DNA of 64,000 nt from an uncultured Verrucomicrobiota bacterium (GCA_902560705.1 CACEMW010000004.1:878-64877); one strand, 5' to 3'; shown: positions 1 through 11,136, counted from the stretch's first letter. Notes: generated by a model from the sequence alone, not told the origin. A program made the numbers and translations.

Positions 1-1194
1 ATGAAGGCAAACTGCAATGATGGCAAAAAATATTATATTTGTATTAGTTTTCGGTTTCATTAATTTTCATTTTCAAGGTTCAGGCAAGCCAACACAGATT
101 TTCGCCAGTGAAAGAAATCCAATTTCTTGATGCGACGCAAGGTTGTGTAAAACTTGTAGACAACGTTCAATATTCATCAAGCAGTGGCTGTACCATTTGG
201 AAATTTCACCAGCTGGATGAAGTGAAACATTTGCATATCAATGATGAATTTTTTTGGAGTGAATGCTTCACCTTGTGCTCGAATCATTTACGCAATCAAT
301 ATCCTATACCTAAAGCCATTCAATTGGTTGACTCAAAAAATAAACGAAGAATTGGTCACGGAAGGGGAAGGTAATTATGGGCCAATCTGTTAAAGAATCG
401 ACAATAGCGTGATTGCATATTTATGGTGCTGCCAAGAAGGCCATCCAAAAAGTTGTGGGAAGATCTAAAAGAATTCTTAGATCAGTTTTGTTAAGCTAGT
501 AAGGTTTGGTAATATTAAGGGCCATAACGAAGCAGTATAAAAGTTTAATATGATAATTTTTAAAAATATTATTTTATAAATTGGACGCTAATTTCTTTCT
601 ATTACAATAAAATTTAAATAGAGTTTATCGTTATATGAGGCCCAGATTTCGGAAAGTAATTCCCGACATTTAGCACAATTTAATACAGAAATATTTTTTT
701 TCAGAAGGTAACACAATACCTTGTGGAACTTTGAGCTAGGATTTTAACCTGTTGCCCTAAAAATACGCAAAATGTATATTGTTTGCCTCCTGTGTGTTGT
801 TTTTTTTCCAGCCAGAGTCTACCAAGCTATGCAGTGTCCCATGTTTTTGATAGCTCATTCAGATAAAAAAAAATCAAGAACAACCGAACATGGTCATGGA
901 TTACCTTTCAGTATTTTAAAAGTCTGCCGGCCCAAAACGTTGCAAAGCATGAATTTGCATTTTGTAAAAATTTCGGGCTGTAAGTCCCCTTAACAAACTT
1001 CGCAACATAGAAATCTTATCGATTGTTTTATTCGATATTGGGCATGAATTTATTTCATTGGAAATGATATCCTAATATGTCGATTGGCATTCGAGATGCA
1101 GCAGGAGTAATCAAAGGGATAGCTTCTCGATAGTATCCTATTTTTATTAATACCATTCTTAACCTTGAACTACGAAAATCAGTATACCGAAGAA

Positions 1195-1824
1195 ATGAAA
1201 CCAGTCAAAAATGCTAATCATCAATCTAATTACTTTAAACTTATAAATTGGTTTGGAGTTGTTGCCATCTTAATTGTATCAATTATCGCCATTGGGTGCG
1301 GCCAAAGTCAATCAATCACAACCCCTGTTGGGATCCCTTACGCAAAAGTAGCAGATTTTTTACATACTGTTTTAGAAAATGACAGAACGGTTTATACAAA
1401 AAATGTTGTCAATAGATTAGTTAAACAAGAAAAGGTCATGAAGGCTAGTGAGCATTGGGTTGATGACAAAGCTTTACCATTACCAGCTCAAATGTTCAGA
1501 ATGGGCGCTGAAATGACTGCTGAAAAAACATCAGCATTCAGTTATTCGTTGCAATCATTATGGCCCATTAATAAGTCTAACGCTGCAGGTCAAACGGATG
1601 TAGAAAAGGAAGGACTTAAGTTCGTTGCCGATAACAAAGGAAAAGCACCTTATTACGGCGAAGAGGTTTTAGGTGACCAAAAGTATTTCGTTGGAGTTTA
1701 TGCAGATGTCGCGGTGGCACCTGTCTGTGTTAGTTGTCACAACGATCACAAGGATACACCAAAGAACGACTTTGCACTAGGGGATGTTATGGGAGGTGTT
1801 GTGATTCGAATACCCGTAGACTAA
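1195..1824 (+). CDS. DUF3365/Tll0287-like c-type haem protein (predicted lipoprotein)
   Basis: ORF 1165..1824. The in-frame ATG at 1195 gives a signal peptide ending in lipobox IAIGC. A single CVSCH haem-c motif lies close to the C-terminus (CVSCHNDHKDTPKNDFALGDVMGGVV), a layout I associate with DUF3365 proteins. AT-rich codon usage matches its neighbours. Confidence 0.55.
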   Translation: MKPVKNANHQSNYFKLINWFGVVAILIVSIIAIGCGQSQSITTPVGIPYAKVADFLHTVLENDRTVYTKNVVNRLVKQEKVMKASEHWVDDKALPLPAQMFRMGAEMTAEKTSAFSYSLQSLWPINKSNAAGQTDVEKEGLKFVADNKGKAPYYGEEVLGDQKYFVGVYADVAVAPVCVSCHNDHKDTPKNDFALGDVMGGVVIRIPVD

Positions 1825-1881
1825 TCATTTTGAGATGTAATCAGCATCACATTTCAGATTAATCCCCTGAAACCCTATTAC

Positions 1882-2295
1882 ATGAATGAACACGTAATAA
1901 AGGTGATATGTGTACTGTGCTTAACCATCTTCTCAGGATGCACCAAAACTGAAGAAAATAACCATATTATATCTTCACAAAGCACCGAAAATGAAAGCCC
2001 GACTTTTGATCCAATGGGCTTAACTTTAAATTCAACCAACCTAGTGCGCGGTCGAGACATTTGGATTGCGAATTGCTCAGTTTGTCATCTCGAGGGTTTA
2101 GGTGGAGCGCCAGTAATCGGAAATTCGAAAGCATGGTCTTGGCGTATAGATAAAACAATTGATACCTTGTACGCGCACGCAATCGAAGGTTTCTACGGCG
2201 ATTATGGAGAAATGCCAGCAAGAGGTGGTAATGACAATTTGGACGACTCAGAGGTTAAATCGGCAGTAGATTTTGTCATTTATGCGAGCAAATAA
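1882..2295 (+). CDS. class I monohaem cytochrome c (c5/c555-like), predicted lipoprotein
   Basis: Signal peptide with lipobox FSGC. CSVCHLEGLGGAPVIG followed by YGEMPARGG (Met ligand region), typical of cytochrome c5-type proteins. Confidence 0.7.
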   Translation: MNEHVIKVICVLCLTIFSGCTKTEENNHIISSQSTENESPTFDPMGLTLNSTNLVRGRDIWIANCSVCHLEGLGGAPVIGNSKAWSWRIDKTIDTLYAHAIEGFYGDYGEMPARGGNDNLDDSEVKSAVDFVIYASK

Positions 2296-2324
2296 TAACT
2301 TATTGAAAGTAAGAAAATGAAATT

Positions 2325-2390
2325 ATGAGTTTAACAAACAACAATGTTAAAGCTGACCAGCCAAGTTGGAAAAGCTGCAGTAAATGTTAA
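2325..2390 (+). pseudogene. truncated 5-prime copy of the downstream globin gene (21 codons)
   Basis: MSLTNNNVKADQPSWKSCSKC* aligns with the globin N-terminus MSLTNEEIQAVQSSWEKCVPI. The roughly 35 nt upstream including the RBS region (aagaaaatgaaattATG versus aagaaaataaaattATG) are also near-identical to 3954..3988. Confidence 0.55.
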
Positions 2391-2846
2391 GTGCAATCAT
2401 AATCCATGCTTAGAAAAAATAACGACCTTCCGCGCGAGTAGAAATAGGGCTGCGCAGTTCAAGGTGGCGAGACCCAGCCGCATCCGTGTATGAGGGGAGC
2501 AGAGTTTGTGGTTTCTTCAAACCGTCTCTTTAATAACATACAAAACCGAACCTTTACGAAATTATATTCCCCATCGGCCTCTTAAATCGTCAGATCGTAG
2601 GTCCAGCGCACGGAGTTGTCCTTCATGGATTTCTTCTTTGCCAACAAAAGCTGGCATTAACTCTACGCCGTGCCCTAATTTGACGGAAACTTTTATGGCT
2701 TTCTTATTTGCCATGTATTTTATCATATCCGATTAAAACTTCTGTTTACGTAAAAATGAGGCTACGATAAGAGAGGTATAAGGTCCCTGGTCGCAAATTA
2801 CAAAACATCCCGCTGTGAAATGGTTCTTTGTGATTTAATCTTTCAA

Positions 2847-2884
2847 ACCATGGCATGAGTGGCCAACCATGGCATGAGTGGCCA
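2847..2884. repeat. perfect tandem duplication of a 19-nt unit (accatggcatgagtggcca x2)
   Basis: Read directly from the sequence. Lies in the non-coding, degenerate segment between the globin fragment and the intact globin. Confidence 0.8.
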
Positions 2885-3092
2885 AATGACCCAAGTTACA
2901 GTATTGGTAAAAACTATTTTGAAAAAAAGTCTGAGTTTAGTTTTCGGGTTCTAAGCTTATAGCAAAGCTAACTAATTCTGATCGCAAGTGTTCGCTTATT
3001 TCCGGCGGTTTCCGTTACAATGGAAATTGTGCATTTAGGAAACATTCGTATGGTTCCCTCGAGACTTCTGGTATAAACACAAGTGAAGTATA

Positions 3093-3326
3093 TTAACTTG
3101 CCCAAATTACAAAGCGACTTCGCTCCCTATAACACAACCCATTAACAGAATCTTTCACCTCATCCATTAACGTTTCTATTCGTTTTCCATATTCGATGAA
3201 GTTTAACGCTGCGTCTGTTGGTAACATACCCTTTCCAACTTTTTGGAACTGGACACAACCAAAATCATCTTCCAAATGTCGGATGGAATGACTGGCGAAC
3301 GGTGTAAAGCTATCGTATTGTATACC
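3093..3326 (-). pseudogene. LysR-family regulator remnant (part of the HTH domain plus linker only)
   Basis: The open frame reads ...SFTPFASHSIRHLEDDFGCVQFQKVGKGMLPTDAALNFIEYGKRIETLMDEVKDSV. This matches the LysR pattern S.qIr.LEeelG..LF.R.gr...LT.aG..ll.ya.ril. It lacks the first ~25 aa and the whole effector-binding domain, and is bounded by stops. Confidence 0.45.
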
Positions 3327-3988
3327 TTAGGGAAATAGTTTTAAATCCGGCTATCGATTATTTATGTGGGAATTACCAGAACAAAGTTTATGGAAGCTTT
3401 TGAGGGTTTAACCAACTCGACGATATCCTAGAGCAAAAGGGACACCAACGATTATCTCTATTTACTTACTTTAAGGATGTAGCTAAATAAACAAACTGTA
3501 CAAAACTATTCAAAAATTTAAAACCTTTTTTACAATGCTAACTTGATTTGGTGTCGGATTCTAACAAGTAATATTCCAAAAGGACCTCAACCTTATTTTT
3601 GCGTGGTGCATAAAACATTAGTAATCAATGTGCTAGGTAGGAATCGAAATCATTCACGTTATCAGTTATTTTTTTTCAGGGCTGTAAATTTTCGAAAGTT
3701 GGCATTGGCATCGTCAGTGCTATTTGGAGGTTGTGATTTAAAATATCAAATCATCGCGGGTGTAGATGGAGCACTAGTATTCAGGAATTGGAAAGCATGA
3801 TCTTGCGGTGTTGAGAAAACAACTGATATCTTATGTTTGATCGAGATCGGATTTTTATGCGGCCATCCTCTAGCAATTCCCCCAAAAGCAGGAAATGACA
3901 ATTTTGAGGACGTATAGGTTAGCTCGAAAGTAAATTTTGTCATTTATCTGAACAAATAATCACTTATTAAGAGAAAGAAAATAAAATT

Positions 3989-4453
3989 ATGAGTTTAACA
4001 AACGAAGAAATTCAAGCCGTTCAGTCAAGTTGGGAAAAATGTGTACCGATAGCAGATAAAGCCGCGGAACTCTTTTATGGAAAATTATTTGAATTAGATC
4101 CAAATCTAAAACCCTTATTCAAAGGAGATATGCAAGAACAGGGGAAAAAATTGATGACAATGATAACTGTAGCTGTGAATGGATTAAATGATTTAGAGAA
4201 AATTGTTTCTGCTGTTAAAGCTCTTGGGGTAAGGCATGTTGGATATGGTGTGGAAGATTCTCATTACGACACTGTAGGTAGCGCTTTGATTTGGACATTG
4301 GGGAAAGGTCTTGGAGAAGAATTTACAGACGCACTGAAGGCTGCTTGGATAAAGGTCTATACTCTTTTAGCAACAACAATGAAAGAAGCGGCTGCAGAAT
4401 CCATTGCGGCATCCAAACCTATACCGTGGCAACTCAAAACTTTTACCAAATGA
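3989..4453 (+). CDS. single-domain globin
   Basis: 154 aa. Pattern SW..v......aa.lFY..LFe.dP.lk.lF....m..Q..KLm.......l.dl......l..LG.rHv.YGV...hYd.Vg.aLi.tL is characteristic of bacterial single-domain/sensor-type globins. A good purine-rich stretch precedes the ATG. Confidence 0.8.
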   Translation: MSLTNEEIQAVQSSWEKCVPIADKAAELFYGKLFELDPNLKPLFKGDMQEQGKKLMTMITVAVNGLNDLEKIVSAVKALGVRHVGYGVEDSHYDTVGSALIWTLGKGLGEEFTDALKAAWIKVYTLLATTMKEAAAESIAASKPIPWQLKTFTK

Positions 4454-4644
4454 AACAAACTGCTATGGAATGGGCTGCGGAGTCGGTTCAAAATTAATCA
4501 AAATTTTTCAAAAAACCAGATAACGGTAGAAAAGGATATTTATGCTTTATTTATGATGCTAATGGCCATAAACAATCAAATAATTACTACAAAATTCGGA
4601 AAGGACACTAAGCCTTCGCATTGAATCTTTTTTATGCTATCCAA

Positions 4645-6621
4645 ATGAGCATAAGTAATTCACCCCGAGATAAAGAGCCGATAGTTATTGTAGGTGGAGG
4701 AATGGCCGCCCATCGGTTATGCACTTCTTTATCTAACTCCGGATATAACACTGCTAATTTAGAAATATATTCCGAAGAAGGAATTTTACCCTACGATAGG
4801 GCTAATCTTTCCAAATGTTTCAGAAGTGAAAATTCTACTCCAACTCCTCTTAACCAAGATGCCTGGTACAAAAAGAACAAAATTAAAATACAACTCCAAA
4901 GTAAGGTCTCCTTAATAGTCCCGGACCAGAAACTGCTCAATTTTGCATGCGGTTTAAAAAAAAGTTACTCGAAGCTAATTTTAGCTCTTGGTTCTGAACC
5001 TTCGACTCAGTTAATCTCCGGAGCTGCATTAGAAAATGTTTTCACATACCGCACATGGGCTGACCTAAAAAGAATAAGAATTGCATGTAAACTAGCAAAG
5101 GAAGTTGCAATCATTGGCGGAGGTTTACTAGGCCTAGAAGCTGCCGGTGCGATTCACAGCAGGAGTCGTAATGTGACAGTATTTGAAATGGCTAACACGC
5201 CTTTGTGCCGTAATCTTAATGAAGAGTCGGGATTTGCCTTATTGAAATACCTTGAATCCAGCGGGATTAAAGTAATTCTTAAATCACAATTAAAAAATAT
5301 CCACCAAGCCGAAGGTTACTTAAATTTAGTTTTCAATAATAATAAAAAATTTAGAGCTAATGTTGTCGTCTTAGCAACAGGTCATAGACCAGCAGGTCAA
5401 TTAGCAAAATTAAGTGGTATCGAGGTTTCCCCTAACGGTGGTATCTTAGTAGATCAACACCTTCAAACAAGTCAAAAAGATATTTTTGCAATAGGTGATT
5501 GTATTTCCCTGAAACATAGAAGTTTTGGTTTTGTTCAACCGGCTTATCACCAAGCCGATATATTGGCCTCAAATCTGTGCGGGTCTACCGAAAAATATGA
5601 ACCAAAAGGTAAGAATATAACGCTCAATCTGTCCGGAGTTGATATTTCCATTTACGGAGACAATCTTGGTAATGCTGACCATTTAACTTATAAGAATGGT
5701 TCGACGTTTCGCTCCTTGGTTGTTCAACGGGGAATTTTAATTGGATCTACAATTATTGGAAATTGGACAAATTCAACTGCCTTAAGATTTGCTGTTGATG
5801 AAAATGTTAAAATTCCAAACCGTCAAAAAAAGGTTTTTAGCACTACTGGTGAACTAAAAGTGTTGGATGATTTCGGGGAAGCGGCCACTTGGTCAAACGA
5901 TTCTATTATATGCAATTGTTGTCATATCGATTGCGGGACCGTTAGGGAGGAAATTAAACAAGGACGCGACAACCTTCAAAAGATTAAGCACTCCTCAGGT
6001 GCAGGGAGCAAATGTGGATCGTGTAGATTACAACTGTTAGGTTTGATTCACGCTGATTTAGATAATAATGAAAAAGCAGAAAATAGCATTTTCGCTTCGG
6101 GAAAAACTTTTAAATACTTGGCATTTTGTGCTTTGATTCTGTGTGTCTTGTATTGGATCCCTTGGCAAATAAGCGCGCCTCACACTGTTGATTCCTTGAA
6201 ATTTCAGTTTTCAAAATTGTGGACCGACTCTGTAATTAAACAGATTACCGGCTTTACAGTAGCTGGCATATCGTTTTTCTCACTTCTCTATTCCCTGAGG
6301 AAAAGGCTTAACTGGTTGCGAATCGGTAAATTAGCTATATGGAAAACATTTCATGTTTTATCCGGTTTTTTAGCTATTATTGTTCTTTTCTTCCACACAG
6401 GATTATCATGGGGATACAACTTAAATTTTTTATTAGCCACAAACTTTTTGGCACTTAACACACTAGGTGCATTGGCAGCTGTTAATTATAGCACAAAACT
6501 TGATAATTCTTCTTTCGCTCAAAATCGAATTAGACATTGGCTTATTCGATCACATATTTTATTTTTTTGGCCCTACCCCGTTTTGCTTTTTATTCATTTA
6601 TACTCAGTGTATCAATATTAA
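4645..6621 (+). CDS. NirB/NAD(P)H-nitrite-reductase-like FAD-dependent pyridine nucleotide-disulphide oxidoreductase fused to a BFD-like [2Fe-2S] module and a C-terminal His-rich 5-TM domain
   Basis: IVIVGGGMAAHRL and VAIIGGGLLGLEAAG dinucleotide-binding motifs, plus AIGDC. The BFD-like Cys pattern CNCCH..CG...(31)...GSKCGSC lies at 5911..6024. After that, 6109..6618 encodes about five hydrophobic helices carrying His residues (FHVLSGFLAIIVLFFHTG, IRHWLIRSHILFFWPYPVLLFIHLY). Start chosen at the first in-frame ATG of ORF 4621..6621. Confidence 0.7.
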   Translation: MSISNSPRDKEPIVIVGGGMAAHRLCTSLSNSGYNTANLEIYSEEGILPYDRANLSKCFRSENSTPTPLNQDAWYKKNKIKIQLQSKVSLIVPDQKLLNFACGLKKSYSKLILALGSEPSTQLISGAALENVFTYRTWADLKRIRIACKLAKEVAIIGGGLLGLEAAGAIHSRSRNVTVFEMANTPLCRNLNEESGFALLKYLESSGIKVILKSQLKNIHQAEGYLNLVFNNNKKFRANVVVLATGHRPAGQLAKLSGIEVSPNGGILVDQHLQTSQKDIFAIGDCISLKHRSFGFVQPAYHQADILASNLCGSTEKYEPKGKNITLNLSGVDISIYGDNLGNADHLTYKNGSTFRSLVVQRGILIGSTIIGNWTNSTALRFAVDENVKIPNRQKKVFSTTGELKVLDDFGEAATWSNDSIICNCCHIDCGTVREEIKQGRDNLQKIKHSSGAGSKCGSCRLQLLGLIHADLDNNEKAENSIFASGKTFKYLAFCALILCVLYWIPWQISAPHTVDSLKFQFSKLWTDSVIKQITGFTVAGISFFSLLYSLRKRLNWLRIGKLAIWKTFHVLSGFLAIIVLFFHTGLSWGYNLNFLLATNFLALNTLGALAAVNYSTKLDNSSFAQNRIRHWLIRSHILFFWPYPVLLFIHLYSVYQY

Positions 6622-7973
6622 TGTATGTCTTAAGCTCTTATTTTTCATCGATATTTCTTGGGACTATATTTCTAGTTTGTACTATCGGAGGTTTGTTTTT
6701 TTTAAAACACAACCAGCAGCTTCTTACCCCTGGGCCTATGACTCATGGGCACCACCAAATAGAACTTCAGTGCGATTCCTGCCACGGAGAGTCGGAAGAA
6801 ACCATGCAACAGGCTTGTTTGGATTGTCACGAAAATGAGCTTAAACGGGTTGATGATTCGCACCCTATAGTTAAATTCCTGGATCCACGTAATGCGGACC
6901 GGTTGGAGAAAATTGATGCGCGGAAATGTGTTAGCTGCCATCGTGAGCATCAACCCGAAAATACTAATGACATGGGACTTACATTACCCAACGACTATTG
7001 CTCTTTTTGTCATCAGGAAATAGCAGAAGACCGGCCAACTCATGTAGGGCTAGGATTCGAAACATGTGCGACAGCAGGATGTCACAATTATCACGATAAC
7101 TCTTCACTATACGAATCATTCTTAACATCACATTTAAATGAGCCAGATTTTAAAGCGAACGGTAAGGTTCCAGAGCGTGATAGCACAGAGAACAATAGCA
7201 TAGATTCGACTATCCAACTCACACAAATTGAAGCTAATATGCCTTCAAATGTGCCAGTGACTCGAGAATTGTTAAATGAGTGGCAAAATTCCATACATGC
7301 AGAAAAATTGATCAATTGTAGACATTGCCATAGCTCCGTTGACGATGAAGTGGAGAGCGCACACTGGGATAATCAAGTTTCCATTGATACTTGTGCACAG
7401 TGTCACGAATATGAGTCACAGGGTTTTAAGGAAGGAAAACATGGAATGCGACTAGCTCTAGGTCTAAGCCATATGAAACCCAAGTTGGCCAGGTTAGCTA
7501 TGAAAACTGAATCGCACCATGAAGATTTAAATTGCACATCCTGCCATTCAAGCCACCGATTCGAAACTAAAAGAGCAGCAGTTGATGCATGTTTAAAATG
7601 CCATAACGATGAACATTCTAATTCATATTTGAACTCGCCCCATTATTCTACGTGGTTGAATGAATTAAGGGGAATCGAATCAAGTGGCACTGGAGTAAGT
7701 TGTGCGACATGCCATATGCCTCGAGTAAAAGTAACCCAATTCGGGGAAACTTCAATTAAAGTTGATCACAACCAAAACAATACATTAAGACCAAACGAGA
7801 AAATGATTCGCAGCGTTTGCCTTAATTGCCACGGACTACAGTTCTCGATAAATTCCCTGGCAGACGAATCACTTATAAGGCTTAATTTTAGTGGCCAATC
7901 GAATTTGCACATAAAAAGCTTAGATATGGTAGCTCAGGAGCTTCTAAGAACTCAAGAGCACTCTGATAAATAA
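6621..7973 (+). CDS. membrane-anchored multihaem cytochrome c (10 CXXCH + 1 CX4CH)
   Basis: The ATG at 6621 overlaps the upstream stop (TAATG) and gives an N-terminal TM helix (IFLGTIFLVCTIGGLFFL). Haem motifs are CDSCH, CLDCH, CVSCH, CSFCH, CATAGCH, CRHCH, CAQCH, CTSCH, CLKCH, CATCH and CLNCH. Confidence 0.8.
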   Translation: MYVLSSYFSSIFLGTIFLVCTIGGLFFLKHNQQLLTPGPMTHGHHQIELQCDSCHGESEETMQQACLDCHENELKRVDDSHPIVKFLDPRNADRLEKIDARKCVSCHREHQPENTNDMGLTLPNDYCSFCHQEIAEDRPTHVGLGFETCATAGCHNYHDNSSLYESFLTSHLNEPDFKANGKVPERDSTENNSIDSTIQLTQIEANMPSNVPVTRELLNEWQNSIHAEKLINCRHCHSSVDDEVESAHWDNQVSIDTCAQCHEYESQGFKEGKHGMRLALGLSHMKPKLARLAMKTESHHEDLNCTSCHSSHRFETKRAAVDACLKCHNDEHSNSYLNSPHYSTWLNELRGIESSGTGVSCATCHMPRVKVTQFGETSIKVDHNQNNTLRPNEKMIRSVCLNCHGLQFSINSLADESLIRLNFSGQSNLHIKSLDMVAQELLRTQEHSDK

Positions 7974-8049
7974 TATTTAATTTTCCGTTAAGTTTCTGTG
8001 CTTGTCCCTATTAAAGCTCTCGAGATTCTACAAAGTATCATCAAACCCA

Positions 8050-8532: not shown

Positions 8533-11136
8533 TCAATTTTCTTTAACCCTCGGCTGAAGCAATTTGGCGATGAGCGCAGTCCAACCTGTCTGATGGCAAG
8601 CACCCACACCTCGGCCATTATCCCCGTGAAAATACTCATAAAACCAGATATAGTCATTGAACTTGTCGTCCGATTGAAGCTTCGGATGATGGAGGTAGAT
8701 TGGGCGAATGCCATTGGAGTTCTTTCGGAACAAGTCCCCTAAACGACCTGTAATATCTTCGGATATCGCTTCAAGCGTCATCCTTTGGGCAGAGTTTGTC
8801 GGCGATTCCAGTTTGAATTCGCTACCGTAATAATGATGGAATCGTTGCAGAGATTCGATAAGCAAAAAGTTTACCGGAAACCAGATCGGACCGCGCCAAT
8901 TCGAATTTCCACCAAACATATACGTATTGGATTCAGCAGGTTGATAATCTACTTGGGAATGACCATTGCAGTATTTGGTTCTTCCATTGCATTTTAAAAT
9001 GAACGGATCTTTTTCATGAGCCTTTGACATGGAGCGAATCCCATAAGGGGAAAGAAACTCCTCTTCATCCATCATTCGCCGAAGAAGAGATCTAAGCCGG
9101 TCTTCTCGCAAAAGGGAAAACAAATGACGATGCCCTCTACCTGGCTCGTTCCAACGGGAAACAAGGGATGCCAATTCCGGTCTATTTTTTAAAACCCAAT
9201 CAAGATATTCCTTGAATCTTGGTAATCTCTTGAGCAATTCGGGTTCAATTACTTCAACTGCAAAAATAGGAATCAGGCCAACCATTGACCGGACTCGAAG
9301 AGGGATCGGCTTTTCGTGGGGAAAATGCAAAAGGTCATAGAAAAATTGATCTTTTTCGTCCCACAGACCAATACCCGTTTCACCGATATTGGTCATCGCC
9401 TTTGCTATGGCGAGGAAATGGTTGAGAAACTTGATGGCGATTTCCTGGTAAACGGGGTTGTGCAACGCAAGTTCAAGTGCAATACGCATCATGTTGAGTG
9501 AATACATGGCCATCCAAGCCGTGCCATCTGCCTGATCCAGCTGCCCTCCTCCTGAAATAGGCTCACTCCTGTCAAAAACACCTACATTATCGAGGCCCAA
9601 GAAGCCTCCTTGAAAAATATTTCTATTGTCCGAATCTTTACGATTCACCCACCAAGTGAAATTTAAAAGCAGCTTGTGGAAAGCCTGTTCAAGAAATTTG
9701 CGGTCTTCAAAACCGTTACGTTTACGATCAATTTGATAGATTCTCCAAACACCCCAGGCGTGCACTGGAGGGTTGACATCCCCAAAAGCCCATTCGTAGG
9801 CAGGTATTTGACCATTGGGATGAAGATAATGATCTTTCAAAACCAATAACATCTGTTCCTTGGCAAATTCAGCGTCAATAAGTGCGAATGGAATACAATG
9901 GAAGGCTAGATCCCAGGCTGCATACCAGGGGTATTCCCACTTGTCTGGCATTGAAATAATATCTGCATTTTTTAAATGGAGCCACTCATGATTACGCCCA
10001 TGACGCCGTGAAGAAGGTGGCGGGGGCATCCCTAGGTCGCCATCCAACCAATCCTCGACATCGAAATAATAATATTGTTTCGACCAGATCAGCCCAGCAA
10101 AGGCCTGTCGCTGGATGGTGCGATCCTCGGCGCTGGTGATATCTGCCTGAAGCTTTGCATAAAAGCGATCTGCTGAACTCCTTATCTCAGAAAATGTTTT
10201 ATCAAATGCCTCAAATGGACTGGACAGCAGCTTCGGTACCATTCGAAATTTGAGTTTTTTAATCTCAGAGGGCTGAAGCTTAAGCCGATGCAATATGGCG
10301 GATTTACTGCCACGCTGATTCGGGTTCACTGCCTTGCGGTTACCTTGAATTAGGTAGTCATGAAAAGCGTCCTTCCAATAACCTTGAGTGTGTCGCTGCA
10401 GTGGGATTGGTGGCCGCGACTCATTTTCAGTAAAAAGTATCTCATCTGGGTCGATAGAATGAAAAAAAAGATCTCCGAGCCCATCATGATGCAAGCCAAC
10501 GCACGCACCATCGGTTTGTTGTATCACGGGTTTCTTCGGTCCTTTTTTGCCCCAAGACCAAATGTTTCGGAACCATACTTGTTGAAGGAAATCAAGTTTA
10601 GCAGGTTCTGGCCCATGATTGACGACGGTGACTTCGATCAAAAGATCTGCTGGTGAAGGACGACCATATTCGATAAATACATCAAAATATCGACCCTCAC
10701 TGAAAACACCTGTGTCTATCAATTCATATTCCGGACTCTGTTTCCCGGAACGGTTTTTCTCCAAAAGCTCTTGGTAAGGAAAGGGAGCTTGCGGGTATTT
10801 GTAGAGCATCTTGAGATAGTCGTGATTGGGTGTGGCATCAAGATAGTAATAAGCCTCTTTGACGTCTTCGCTATGGTTCCCCTCTGAGCCCGTTAGCCCG
10901 AATAGACGTTCCTTGAGTATCGGGTCTCGACCATTCCACAAACCAACTCCTAGGCACAGTAGTTGCTGATCATCGCTGAATCCTGCAATTCCATCCTCAC
11001 CCCACCTGTAAGAGCGACTGCGCGCCATGTCATGGCTCAAATAATCCCATGCCTTCCCGTTGGCACTATAATCCTCTCGAACCGTTCCCCACTGACGCTC
11101 GCTCAAATAAGGGCCCCACTTTTTCCACGCAGACAT
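8533..11136 (-). CDS. GH63-like (MGH1-type) glycoside hydrolase / glucosidase
   Basis: 867 aa. The N-terminus WGPYLSERQWGTVREDYS..G.AWDY..HD.ARSR.YRWGEDGIAG and the later (alpha/alpha)6-type region (WDLAFH, NPPVHAW, FQGGFLGLDN) match the widespread bacterial ~880-aa glucosidase family as I remember it. Confidence 0.7.
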   Translation of the reverse strand: MSAWKKWGPYLSERQWGTVREDYSANGKAWDYLSHDMARSRSYRWGEDGIAGFSDDQQLLCLGVGLWNGRDPILKERLFGLTGSEGNHSEDVKEAYYYLDATPNHDYLKMLYKYPQAPFPYQELLEKNRSGKQSPEYELIDTGVFSEGRYFDVFIEYGRPSPADLLIEVTVVNHGPEPAKLDFLQQVWFRNIWSWGKKGPKKPVIQQTDGACVGLHHDGLGDLFFHSIDPDEILFTENESRPPIPLQRHTQGYWKDAFHDYLIQGNRKAVNPNQRGSKSAILHRLKLQPSEIKKLKFRMVPKLLSSPFEAFDKTFSEIRSSADRFYAKLQADITSAEDRTIQRQAFAGLIWSKQYYYFDVEDWLDGDLGMPPPPSSRRHGRNHEWLHLKNADIISMPDKWEYPWYAAWDLAFHCIPFALIDAEFAKEQMLLVLKDHYLHPNGQIPAYEWAFGDVNPPVHAWGVWRIYQIDRKRNGFEDRKFLEQAFHKLLLNFTWWVNRKDSDNRNIFQGGFLGLDNVGVFDRSEPISGGGQLDQADGTAWMAMYSLNMMRIALELALHNPVYQEIAIKFLNHFLAIAKAMTNIGETGIGLWDEKDQFFYDLLHFPHEKPIPLRVRSMVGLIPIFAVEVIEPELLKRLPRFKEYLDWVLKNRPELASLVSRWNEPGRGHRHLFSLLREDRLRSLLRRMMDEEEFLSPYGIRSMSKAHEKDPFILKCNGRTKYCNGHSQVDYQPAESNTYMFGGNSNWRGPIWFPVNFLLIESLQRFHHYYGSEFKLESPTNSAQRMTLEAISEDITGRLGDLFRKNSNGIRPIYLHHPKLQSDDKFNDYIWFYEYFHGDNGRGVGACHQTGWTALIAKLLQPRVKEN

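Follow-up and report, generated by a model that had tools for sequence, protein, structure and literature searches.

NirB-type proteins (TIGR02374) and the NasB, NasC, NorW and Flp diaphorases share an N-terminal flavin adenine dinucleotide (FAD)/NAD(P)H module with two Rossmann motifs, followed by a BFD-type [2Fe-2S] module; in NirB the rest of the chain is the sirohaem/[4Fe-4S] catalytic half. In NOX, DUOX, FRE, SpNOX and cyanobacterial NOX5, electrons pass from cytoplasmic NAD(P)H through a flavin and two b haems to the outside, and in NOX/FRE proteins two His pairs, 12-13 residues apart on two transmembrane helices, ligate the stacked b haems. To our knowledge, the redox enzymes of the bacterial periplasm are thought to be supplied almost entirely via the quinone pool. 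The stretch of DNA analyzed here, called the window, comprises 64,000 nucleotides from an uncultured Verrucomicrobiota bacterium (GCA_902560705.1, CACEMW010000004.1:878-64877). It encodes a fusion protein in which a NirB-type flavoprotein and its [2Fe-2S] module are joined to a five-helix membrane domain and, overlapping it, a cytochrome c with 11 haem motifs. We consider it probable, with some reservation, that this pair is part of an NAD(P)H-fed flavo-iron-sulfur-cytochrome b system powering a periplasmic haem-c chain that acts on nitrogen oxides. The gene set itself is real, widely conserved and unstudied: a literature search found no description of it, in agreement with an earlier note made from the sequence, which had not recognized the fusion as a characterized enzyme.

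The fusion gene is a single open reading frame, giving 666 residues from TTG 4621 or 658 residues from ATG 4645; the ATG is the likelier start because the closest homologs (P0001-P0004) are 658 residues long. Pyr_redox_2 is matched at residues 21-312 and Fer2_BFD further on (Table 1), while the NirB profile TIGR02374 aligns only to position 477 of 794, with 284 bits against a cutoff of 578. Its positions 478-794, the sirohaem/[4Fe-4S] half, are unmatched and, unlike in NirB, a five-helix domain with four His residues stands there instead. Both GxGxxG dinucleotide motifs are conserved and the four BFD cysteines (5911..6024) are invariant in 103 aligned full-length homologs. The fusion ends in TAA at 6619-6621, overlapping the ATG of the cytochrome at 6621-6623 (TAATG), and relatives have the overlap too. 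The earlier note had read the locus in this way, with the three modules on one polypeptide, the membrane domain in the place of the sirohaem domain, the cysteines at these coordinates and the start/stop overlap with a membrane-anchored multihaem cytochrome, and each of these points was confirmed. With the four His residues, the four BFD cysteines and all 11 haem motifs invariant across 51-103 homologs, the features lie well outside what chance would produce. Codon-position identities of the fusion gene to its nearest relative are 0.91/0.94/0.78; against the locus of that relative (L105), the fusion and the cytochrome show 85% and 89% amino acid identity, with third positions at 0.78 and 0.82 and the others at 0.91-0.96. 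Third codon positions are thus the least conserved, which indicates that both genes are under purifying selection.

In some NirB-type members (P0136 and P0158), a low-complexity and probably disordered linker of ~270 residues separates the BFD module from the membrane domain. If these long-linker proteins work, their [2Fe-2S] module may dock dynamically and not rigidly.

When the C-terminal 182 residues were searched against 1.84 billion representative proteins, homologs were found in 518 clusters at 50% identity (371 at E<=1e-10), mostly of 650-690 residues and with the domain at the very C-terminus. Together with the purifying selection, this shows that the fusion is not an artefact of a missed stop or a frameshift, a possibility that the earlier note had named. 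Gene linkage was surveyed in 83 loci, 80 of them from a scan with one genome per species and 3 from metagenome assemblies; 61 were well covered, with enough flanking DNA. Those of the species scan come from Verrucomicrobiota, Gamma- and Alphaproteobacteria (Pseudomonadota), Planctomycetota, Polyangiaceae (Myxococcota) and Poribacteria. A cytochrome of ~450 residues with 10 CXXCH motifs follows the fusion gene in 82 of the 83 loci, and 78 have a Tll0287-like gene; every one of the 61 well-covered loci, which span five phyla, has both. The association with a multihaem gene that the earlier note had seen at one locus is therefore general. Among the same 61 loci, a globin or truncated globin gene was found in 44, a monohaem cytochrome c gene in 31, NrtA-type transporter genes in 23, an ANTAR response regulator in 10 and an Rrf2 regulator in 9, the Rrf2 neighbors scoring best as NsrR, below the curated cutoff. 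Loci with such an NsrR-type arrangement occur in Verrucomicrobiota. At least one nitrogen-related neighbor was present in 51, and, as with NirB-type systems, the fusion gene is often located among nitrate-assimilation genes. The fusion-protein tree largely tracks phyla, and the window copy sits on a very long, composition-skewed branch in an Opitutales-type clade (support 98) with the gene order Tll0287-cytochrome c-globin-fusion-cytochrome. The genome of the window falls into one class with a Coraliomargarita genome, which places it in Verrucomicrobiota, and the membrane domain was present in only 4 of 200 sampled high-quality genomes of this phylum. The idea that the module replaces the assimilatory nitrite reductase was rejected, as a full-length NirB (>1000 bits) is encoded elsewhere in four of the five carrier genomes checked.

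The C-terminal 180 residues match no Pfam family above cutoff, and a PDB sequence-profile search with the membrane domain gave no match. Hydropathy analysis shows hydrophobic spans, and an AlphaFold2 model using 69 orthologs (predicted local distance difference test 90.4, predicted template modeling score 0.86) has five transmembrane helices along with one short amphipathic helix. In the numbering of the 666-residue, TTG-start form, helix 3 carries His578 and His592 and helix 5 carries His645 and His659, each pair being spaced H-x13-H, with one His of each helix near each membrane face in the model. The four His residues are invariant in 103 and in 69 sequences, and the motif RKR...W-R/K..H...HTG is invariant across five phyla. 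The earlier prediction of about five transmembrane helices with paired His residues (6109..6618) is thus upheld by a confidently modeled, membrane-embedded helix bundle with two invariant pairs. The flavoprotein has no signal peptide and is therefore taken to be cytoplasmic; the basic residues of the predicted cytoplasmic loops, read from the sequence (RKR after helix 2 and a K/R-rich loop before helix 5), then lie on the cytoplasmic side. In NOX/FRE proteins and in cytochromes b, two stacked b haems are ligated in just this way, with one His of each paired helix near each face. From these motifs we infer that the domain would bind haem b, and we propose a putative inner haem on His578/His645 and a putative outer haem on His592/His659.

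Below threshold, the 69 members matched the Pfam families DUF4405 (42 members), Ni_hydr_CYTB (10) and Ferric_reduct (7, best 1.1e-3). For DUF4405 (PF14358), the window protein scores 18.8 bits against a gathering threshold of 26.7, and the 42 matching relatives have E<0.1, the best being 9.4e-6. The fusion resembles the DUF4405, MsrQ and PepSY-type di-haem modules in having a small, putatively His-ligated membrane module with a common 'W-R..H-x13-H' helix, and those modules deliver electrons to extracytosolic redox partners (PMC11334425). For one DUF4405 protein whose His helix carries this motif, haem b binding has been demonstrated (PMC11334425). Unlike the fusion, however, these systems are fed by quinol or by a separate flavin reductase, and their partners are flavinylated or molybdo-proteins. 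With NOX/FRE proteins the fusion shares the predicted electron path and the H-x13-H spacing, but there is no significant homology (PF01794 remains sub-threshold, and a search of the window's genome for PF01794 found none), and the fusion has five helices where NOX/FRE proteins have six. Its dehydrogenase is N-terminal and of another fold (Pyr_redox_2), whereas that of NOX/FRE is C-terminal and FNR-like (FAD_binding_8/NAD_binding_6), and it has an additional [2Fe-2S] module and, as predicted acceptor, a dedicated 11-haem cytochrome in place of O2 or Fe(III). Judged by its sequence, the membrane domain is best described as an uncurated family of its own that shares a haem-helix motif with other families.

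The cytochrome carries an N-terminal hydrophobic helix, 10 CXXCH motifs and a CATAGCH motif, the last being the CX4CH site pointed out before; it has no CXXCK motif. In 51 orthologs, the 11 haem motifs and exactly 11 further His residues are invariant, 5 of these in the N-terminal half and 6 in the C-terminal half, a count that would fit eleven bis-His haems, i.e., a wire rather than an enzyme. Profile searches against the PDB gave local matches to haem-pair modules of NrfA and of octahaem nitrite reductase (E 1e-9 to 1e-8). The structural model is good for residues ~200-450 only, the N-terminal half being of low confidence, and its only meaningful Foldseek matches were hydroxylamine oxidoreductase (HAO; 6t5e and 4n4n) and IhOCC of Ignicoccus (4qo5), with probability 0.97-1.0, E 6e-3 to 2e-2 and a template modeling score of ~0.28. 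The N-terminal half of the cytochrome thus appears c3-like and the C-terminal half HAO/octahaem-cytochrome-like. Enzymes of the octahaem cytochrome c superfamily transform nitrogen oxides, and the resemblance to HAO, IhOCC, octahaem nitrite reductase and NrfA, as suggested by the fold and local profile matches, is located in the six-haem C-terminal half. In contrast to that superfamily, the cytochrome has 11 haems, a c3-like N-terminal half and a membrane anchor, lacks CXXCK and any evident five-coordinate haem, and would receive its electrons from a flavocytochrome b where that superfamily depends on quinol dehydrogenases. The 'undecahaem' cytochrome UetJ of Tenderiales was considered as a relative and judged unrelated, having a different context and a predicted extracellular location.

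Among the longer homologs, we found a large family in which the NirB-type module is exchanged for an FNR-type one: a cyclic nucleotide monophosphate (cNMP)-binding or EF-hand domain, the BFD module, an FNR-like FAD_binding_6/NAD_binding_1 dehydrogenase and then the four-His membrane domain. In all five loci of this type that were examined, a multihaem cytochrome of ~450 residues comes next and a Tll0287-like gene lies in the same cluster; globins were present in two. This replacement of the NirB-type module with retention of the core partners is new in this analysis. The constant core is thus the [2Fe-2S] module, the membrane domain, the 11-haem cytochrome and the Tll0287-like protein, which two unrelated NAD(P)H-flavin modules can feed. 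That an unrelated NAD(P)H module is swapped while the rest is kept supports NAD(P)H as the electron source and the membrane domain as the acceptor, and is the strongest argument for both. It likewise lends support to the electron path outlined in the earlier note, in which NAD(P)H, FAD, [2Fe-2S] and b haems would lead to a multihaem wire. These sister variants resemble NOX5 and DUOX in their FNR-type dehydrogenase and their EF-hand or cNMP regulatory domains, but, unlike in NOX/FRE, even here the dehydrogenase is N-terminal to the membrane domain. A fusion of globin and flavoprotein was also looked for among the longer homologs, and none was found; these proteins are either the cNMP/EF-hand-BFD-FNR variants or carry long disordered linkers.

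The BFD-FNR module is fused elsewhere to nitric oxide (NO) synthase, P450 and desaturase domains, which indicates that its role is to reduce acceptors containing haem or iron. Examples are P0250, P0267, P0283, P0241, P0237 and P0248, in which BFD and FNR-like domains, often with cNMP or EF-hand domains, are attached to an NO synthase oxygenase, a P450, a fatty-acid desaturase or a Trp-halogenase. Apparently the combination is a self-sufficient reductase cassette, both regulated and versatile, and its NO synthase fusions resemble the self-sufficient NO synthase of Sorangium cellulosum. One FNR-type locus, L102, has a divergent operon (2165-5726, minus strand) beside the fusion and cytochrome genes. 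Its products are a NorW-like fusion of rubredoxin with rubredoxin reductase, both a tandem and a single globin, and the Tll0287-like protein, the first of them being a possible second globin reductase.

The remaining members of the gene set are a Tll0287-like protein, a monohaem cytochrome c and a globin. The Tll0287-like protein has a lipoprotein-type signal and one CVSCH motif, and its subfamily lacks the second Cys, which is the distal ligand of Tll0287, and shows a dense set of invariant polar residues. With a candidate distal His on every haem of the wire-like cytochrome, the catalytic end of the chain may lie in this protein. A stand-alone Tll0287 relative has been reported to have a haem of +123 mV and weak NO binding, and no genetic association was found for the stand-alone Tll0287/DUF3365 proteins (preprint 10.64898/2026.02.01.703092). 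The monohaem cytochrome c carries a lipoprotein signal, and its Met-ligand region, MP..GG, is conserved. The globin has no signal peptide, so that the cytoplasmic location given in the earlier note holds, and its nearest match is the globin domain of the NO-inducible flavohaemoglobin Hmp. Its gene ends 167 nucleotides before TTG 4621 and 191 before ATG 4645, and in Polyangiaceae it is translationally coupled. The question raised earlier of whether the globin is a partner or only a neighbor receives a divided answer: its gene is a frequent companion of the fusion, but not a universal one.

A parallel to this arrangement is the narK-bjgb-flp-nasC cluster of Bradyrhizobium, in which a single-domain globin and an NAD(P)H flavoprotein are likewise encoded near nitrate-assimilation genes (PMC4724949). 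There the globin and the flavoprotein are co-regulated with nitrate assimilation by NasT and detoxify NO arising from nitrate use, which provides a precedent for an NO-detoxifying pair (Bjgb-Flp) inside a nitrate-assimilation operon (PMC4724949). Flp of Bradyrhizobium, in contrast to the fusion, is a soluble protein that lacks a membrane domain as well as a multihaem cytochrome and a Tll0287-like partner. In one of the loci surveyed, L071, a globin gene followed by a Flp-like gene lies beside the module.

In the mechanism that we propose, the fusion protein would oxidize NAD(P)H in the cytoplasm and pass the electrons from FAD to the [2Fe-2S] cluster, then to the inner and the outer haem b and thereby across the inner membrane. 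The outer haem b would reduce the co-translated, membrane-anchored 11-haem cytochrome, which would hand electrons to the Tll0287-like haem-c lipoprotein in the periplasm and, in loci that encode it, to the monohaem cytochrome c. We infer an outward flow that would be independent of quinone and would dissipate membrane potential instead of building it. Moving NAD(P)H electrons out to the positive side of the membrane should be wasteful of energy, which would suit detoxification or housekeeping and not respiration. The Hmp-like globin of NO-dioxygenase type, the NsrR-like and NasT-like regulators and the nitrate-transporter genes point to nitrogen oxides as the target, which would be NO or a related compound (nitrite, hydroxylamine), with the globin acting inside the cell and the haem-c chain outside. 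A more specific version is that of an independently evolved, NOX-like and quinone-independent system with an interchangeable NAD(P)H module, under cNMP or Ca2+ control in some members, in which 11 c haems and a Cache-fold haem protein would reduce NO or another nitrogen oxide outside the cytoplasm; we offer it tentatively, as a serious possibility that falls somewhat short of being probable.

If the proposal is correct, a widespread system would power periplasmic chemistry in a distinct manner, by taking NAD(P)H electrons directly through the membrane, and would be a parallel to the eukaryotic NADPH oxidases and ferric reductases built from unrelated parts. For the stand-alone Tll0287/DUF3365 haem proteins, it would also supply a function and a set of partners for the first time, and it would add a new nitrogen-cycle enzyme system to marine Verrucomicrobiota, Gammaproteobacteria, Planctomycetota and Myxococcota. 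The system may reveal an unrecognized step in NO handling during nitrate assimilation in abundant marine heterotrophs.

Several results weigh against the NAD(P)H-to-nitrogen-oxide chain. Foldseek of the membrane-domain model against the PDB gave a best E of 0.6, to talin-like bundles, and no NOX, STEAP, b561 or FoxB, so that the ferric-reductase or cytochrome-b fold contemplated in the earlier note did not appear. With hhalign, DUF4405 gave E 0.009 (probability 4%) and a bona fide ferric-reductase domain E 0.014 (probability 3%), and the alignments to DUF4405 and Ferric_reduct span only the 'W-R..H-x13-H' helix. All 11 c haems have a candidate invariant distal His, and thus the cytochrome shows no obvious haem with an open catalytic position. 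Ten of the 61 well-covered loci have no nitrogen-related neighbor, and no Rrf2/NsrR-like regulator gene was found in the window or in the 877 bp upstream of it up to the contig end. A still different role can be envisaged for the membrane domain, namely that of a haem-free anchor holding the cytoplasmic globin or a NasC-type reductase in the manner of Flp, with the cytochrome working independently. The absence of a fold match to known cytochromes b would agree with such an anchor, as would the fact that soluble Flp-like flavoproteins serve globins and nitrate reductase (PMC4724949). It would, however, leave unexplained the four invariant His residues at haem-type spacing, the RKR...W-R/K..H...HTG motif conserved in five phyla and the strict translational coupling to the cytochrome, and we find it highly improbable.

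Other explanations accept the b haems and differ in where the electrons come from or go to. The membrane domain could be a quinone-reactive cytochrome b, making the protein an NDH-2-like NADH:quinone reductase or a quinol:cytochrome c reductase like CbcL, CymA and NrfH, with electrons entering or leaving by way of the quinone pool and not passing directly across the membrane. NDH-2 and the NirB-type modules fall into one class of two-dinucleotide-binding flavoproteins (Pyr_redox_2), the known multihaem proteins that partner membrane cytochromes b mostly draw their electrons from quinol, and the family weakly matched by 10 of the 69 members, Ni_hydr_CYTB, is a quinone-reactive di-haem b family. 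We nevertheless regard this as unlikely, as a permanently fused NAD(P)H dehydrogenase and [2Fe-2S] module would be superfluous for a cytochrome that is fed by quinol, the input module is exchanged for a non-homologous NAD(P)H module with the rest kept, and in Pfam and PDB profile searches neither a quinone-site motif nor any family assignment reached significance. A ferric or other metal reductase, or an outlet for extracellular electron transfer, is quite unlikely in our view. Such a bacterial analogue of FRE/STEAP, reducing periplasmic Fe(III) chelates or other metals, would account for the NOX/FRE-like layout, for a TonB-dependent receptor gene immediately upstream in one variant locus and porin genes recurring nearby, and for weak matches of the cytochrome to an MtrC/MtrF domain and the DmsE family; but globins, NsrR-like or NasT-like regulators and nitrate transporters dominate the neighborhoods, not iron-uptake or Fur-type genes, and no conserved MtrAB-type outer-membrane porin-cytochrome partner was found. 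Electrons could also flow inward, with the HAO-like cytochrome oxidizing hydroxylamine or NO, or taking electrons from cytochrome c, to re-reduce the globin or NAD(P)+. The resemblance of the C-terminal half of the cytochrome to hydroxylamine oxidoreductases is in keeping with this, the globin requires a reductant, and the monohaem cytochrome c and a Tll0287-type haem of ~+120 mV are possible donors (preprint 10.64898/2026.02.01.703092). Transfer from the positive to the negative side up to the potential of NAD(P) should, however, be thermodynamically unfavorable for such substrates, the cytochrome has no HAO-type catalytic signature and candidate bis-His ligands at every haem, and interchangeable NAD(P)H modules regulated through cNMP-binding or EF-hand domains are in keeping with a donor function like that in NOX5; inward flow is thus very unlikely. 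We therefore retain outward transfer from NAD(P)H to the periplasmic haem-c chain as the preferred reading.

At the start of the window, the redox block consists of five genes on the plus strand (Table 1). Its GC content is 0.37-0.39 across 1..8000, compared with 0.51-0.57 in the rest of the window. The AT-rich block may be an old unameliorated island or may reflect locally constrained composition. The contig of the nearest relative (L105 1-3400) has a GC content of 0.37-0.40 in the module and 0.45-0.53 in the flanks. Directly past the block in the window, where the GC content rises, lies a large gene for a GH63/MGH1-like glycoside hydrolase (8533-11136, minus strand).

Table 1. Coordinates of the features of the redox block in the window
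Feature	Position	Strand	Evidence
Tll0287-like (DUF3365, sCache_haem) haem-c protein	1165..1824	+	Pfam PF11845, 9.3e-18
Monohaem cytochrome c, c5/cbb3-subunit-III type	1882..2295	+	Pfam PF13442, 1.4e-11
Degenerate non-coding gap, 1.7 kb, between cytochrome c and globin genes	2296..3988	.	ORF (open reading frame) and Rfam scans
Single-domain globin	3989..4453	+	Pfam Globin 2.9e-17; NCBIfam NF009805 2.9e-18, residues 3-137
NirB-type FAD/NAD(P)H module of fusion protein, predicted cytoplasmic	4645..5904	+	Pyr_redox_2 8.5e-51; TIGR02374 positions 1-477
BFD-like [2Fe-2S] module of fusion protein, CxC...CxxC	5905..6048	+	PF04324, residues 429-476
Five-helix membrane domain of fusion protein, two H-x13-H pairs	6109..6621	+	AlphaFold2; invariant His
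11-haem cytochrome c, predicted membrane-anchored and periplasmic	6621..7973	+	Motifs; 450 residues

The gap between the cytochrome c and globin genes contains no open reading frame of more than 85 codons, and an Rfam search of the region from 1 to 12 kb gave no match. A segment of it (3753..3956) is a decayed 3' end of a cytochrome c gene (tblastn, 41% identity to cytochrome c residues 70-137), and the related Opitutales-type loci have the globin gene directly after the cytochrome c gene. The gap looks like a scar left by an insertion or duplication. A short minus-strand open reading frame within it (3093..3275) resembles, by eye, the helix-turn-helix of a LysR-type regulator. A promoter and terminator scan was uninformative, with fewer sites than in shuffled sequences.

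Just upstream of the window, an outer-membrane beta-barrel gene adjoins the module (L087 2-937, minus strand), and a beta-barrel gene lies beside the module in at least 8-10 other loci, e.g., L004 10058-11257, L012 10590-11825 and L060 11415-12680. The family matches of these barrels are weak, to Pfam Alginate_exp in one locus and NCBIfam Opr-porin in another. The neighboring beta-barrel may be a porin for the substrate of the pathway.

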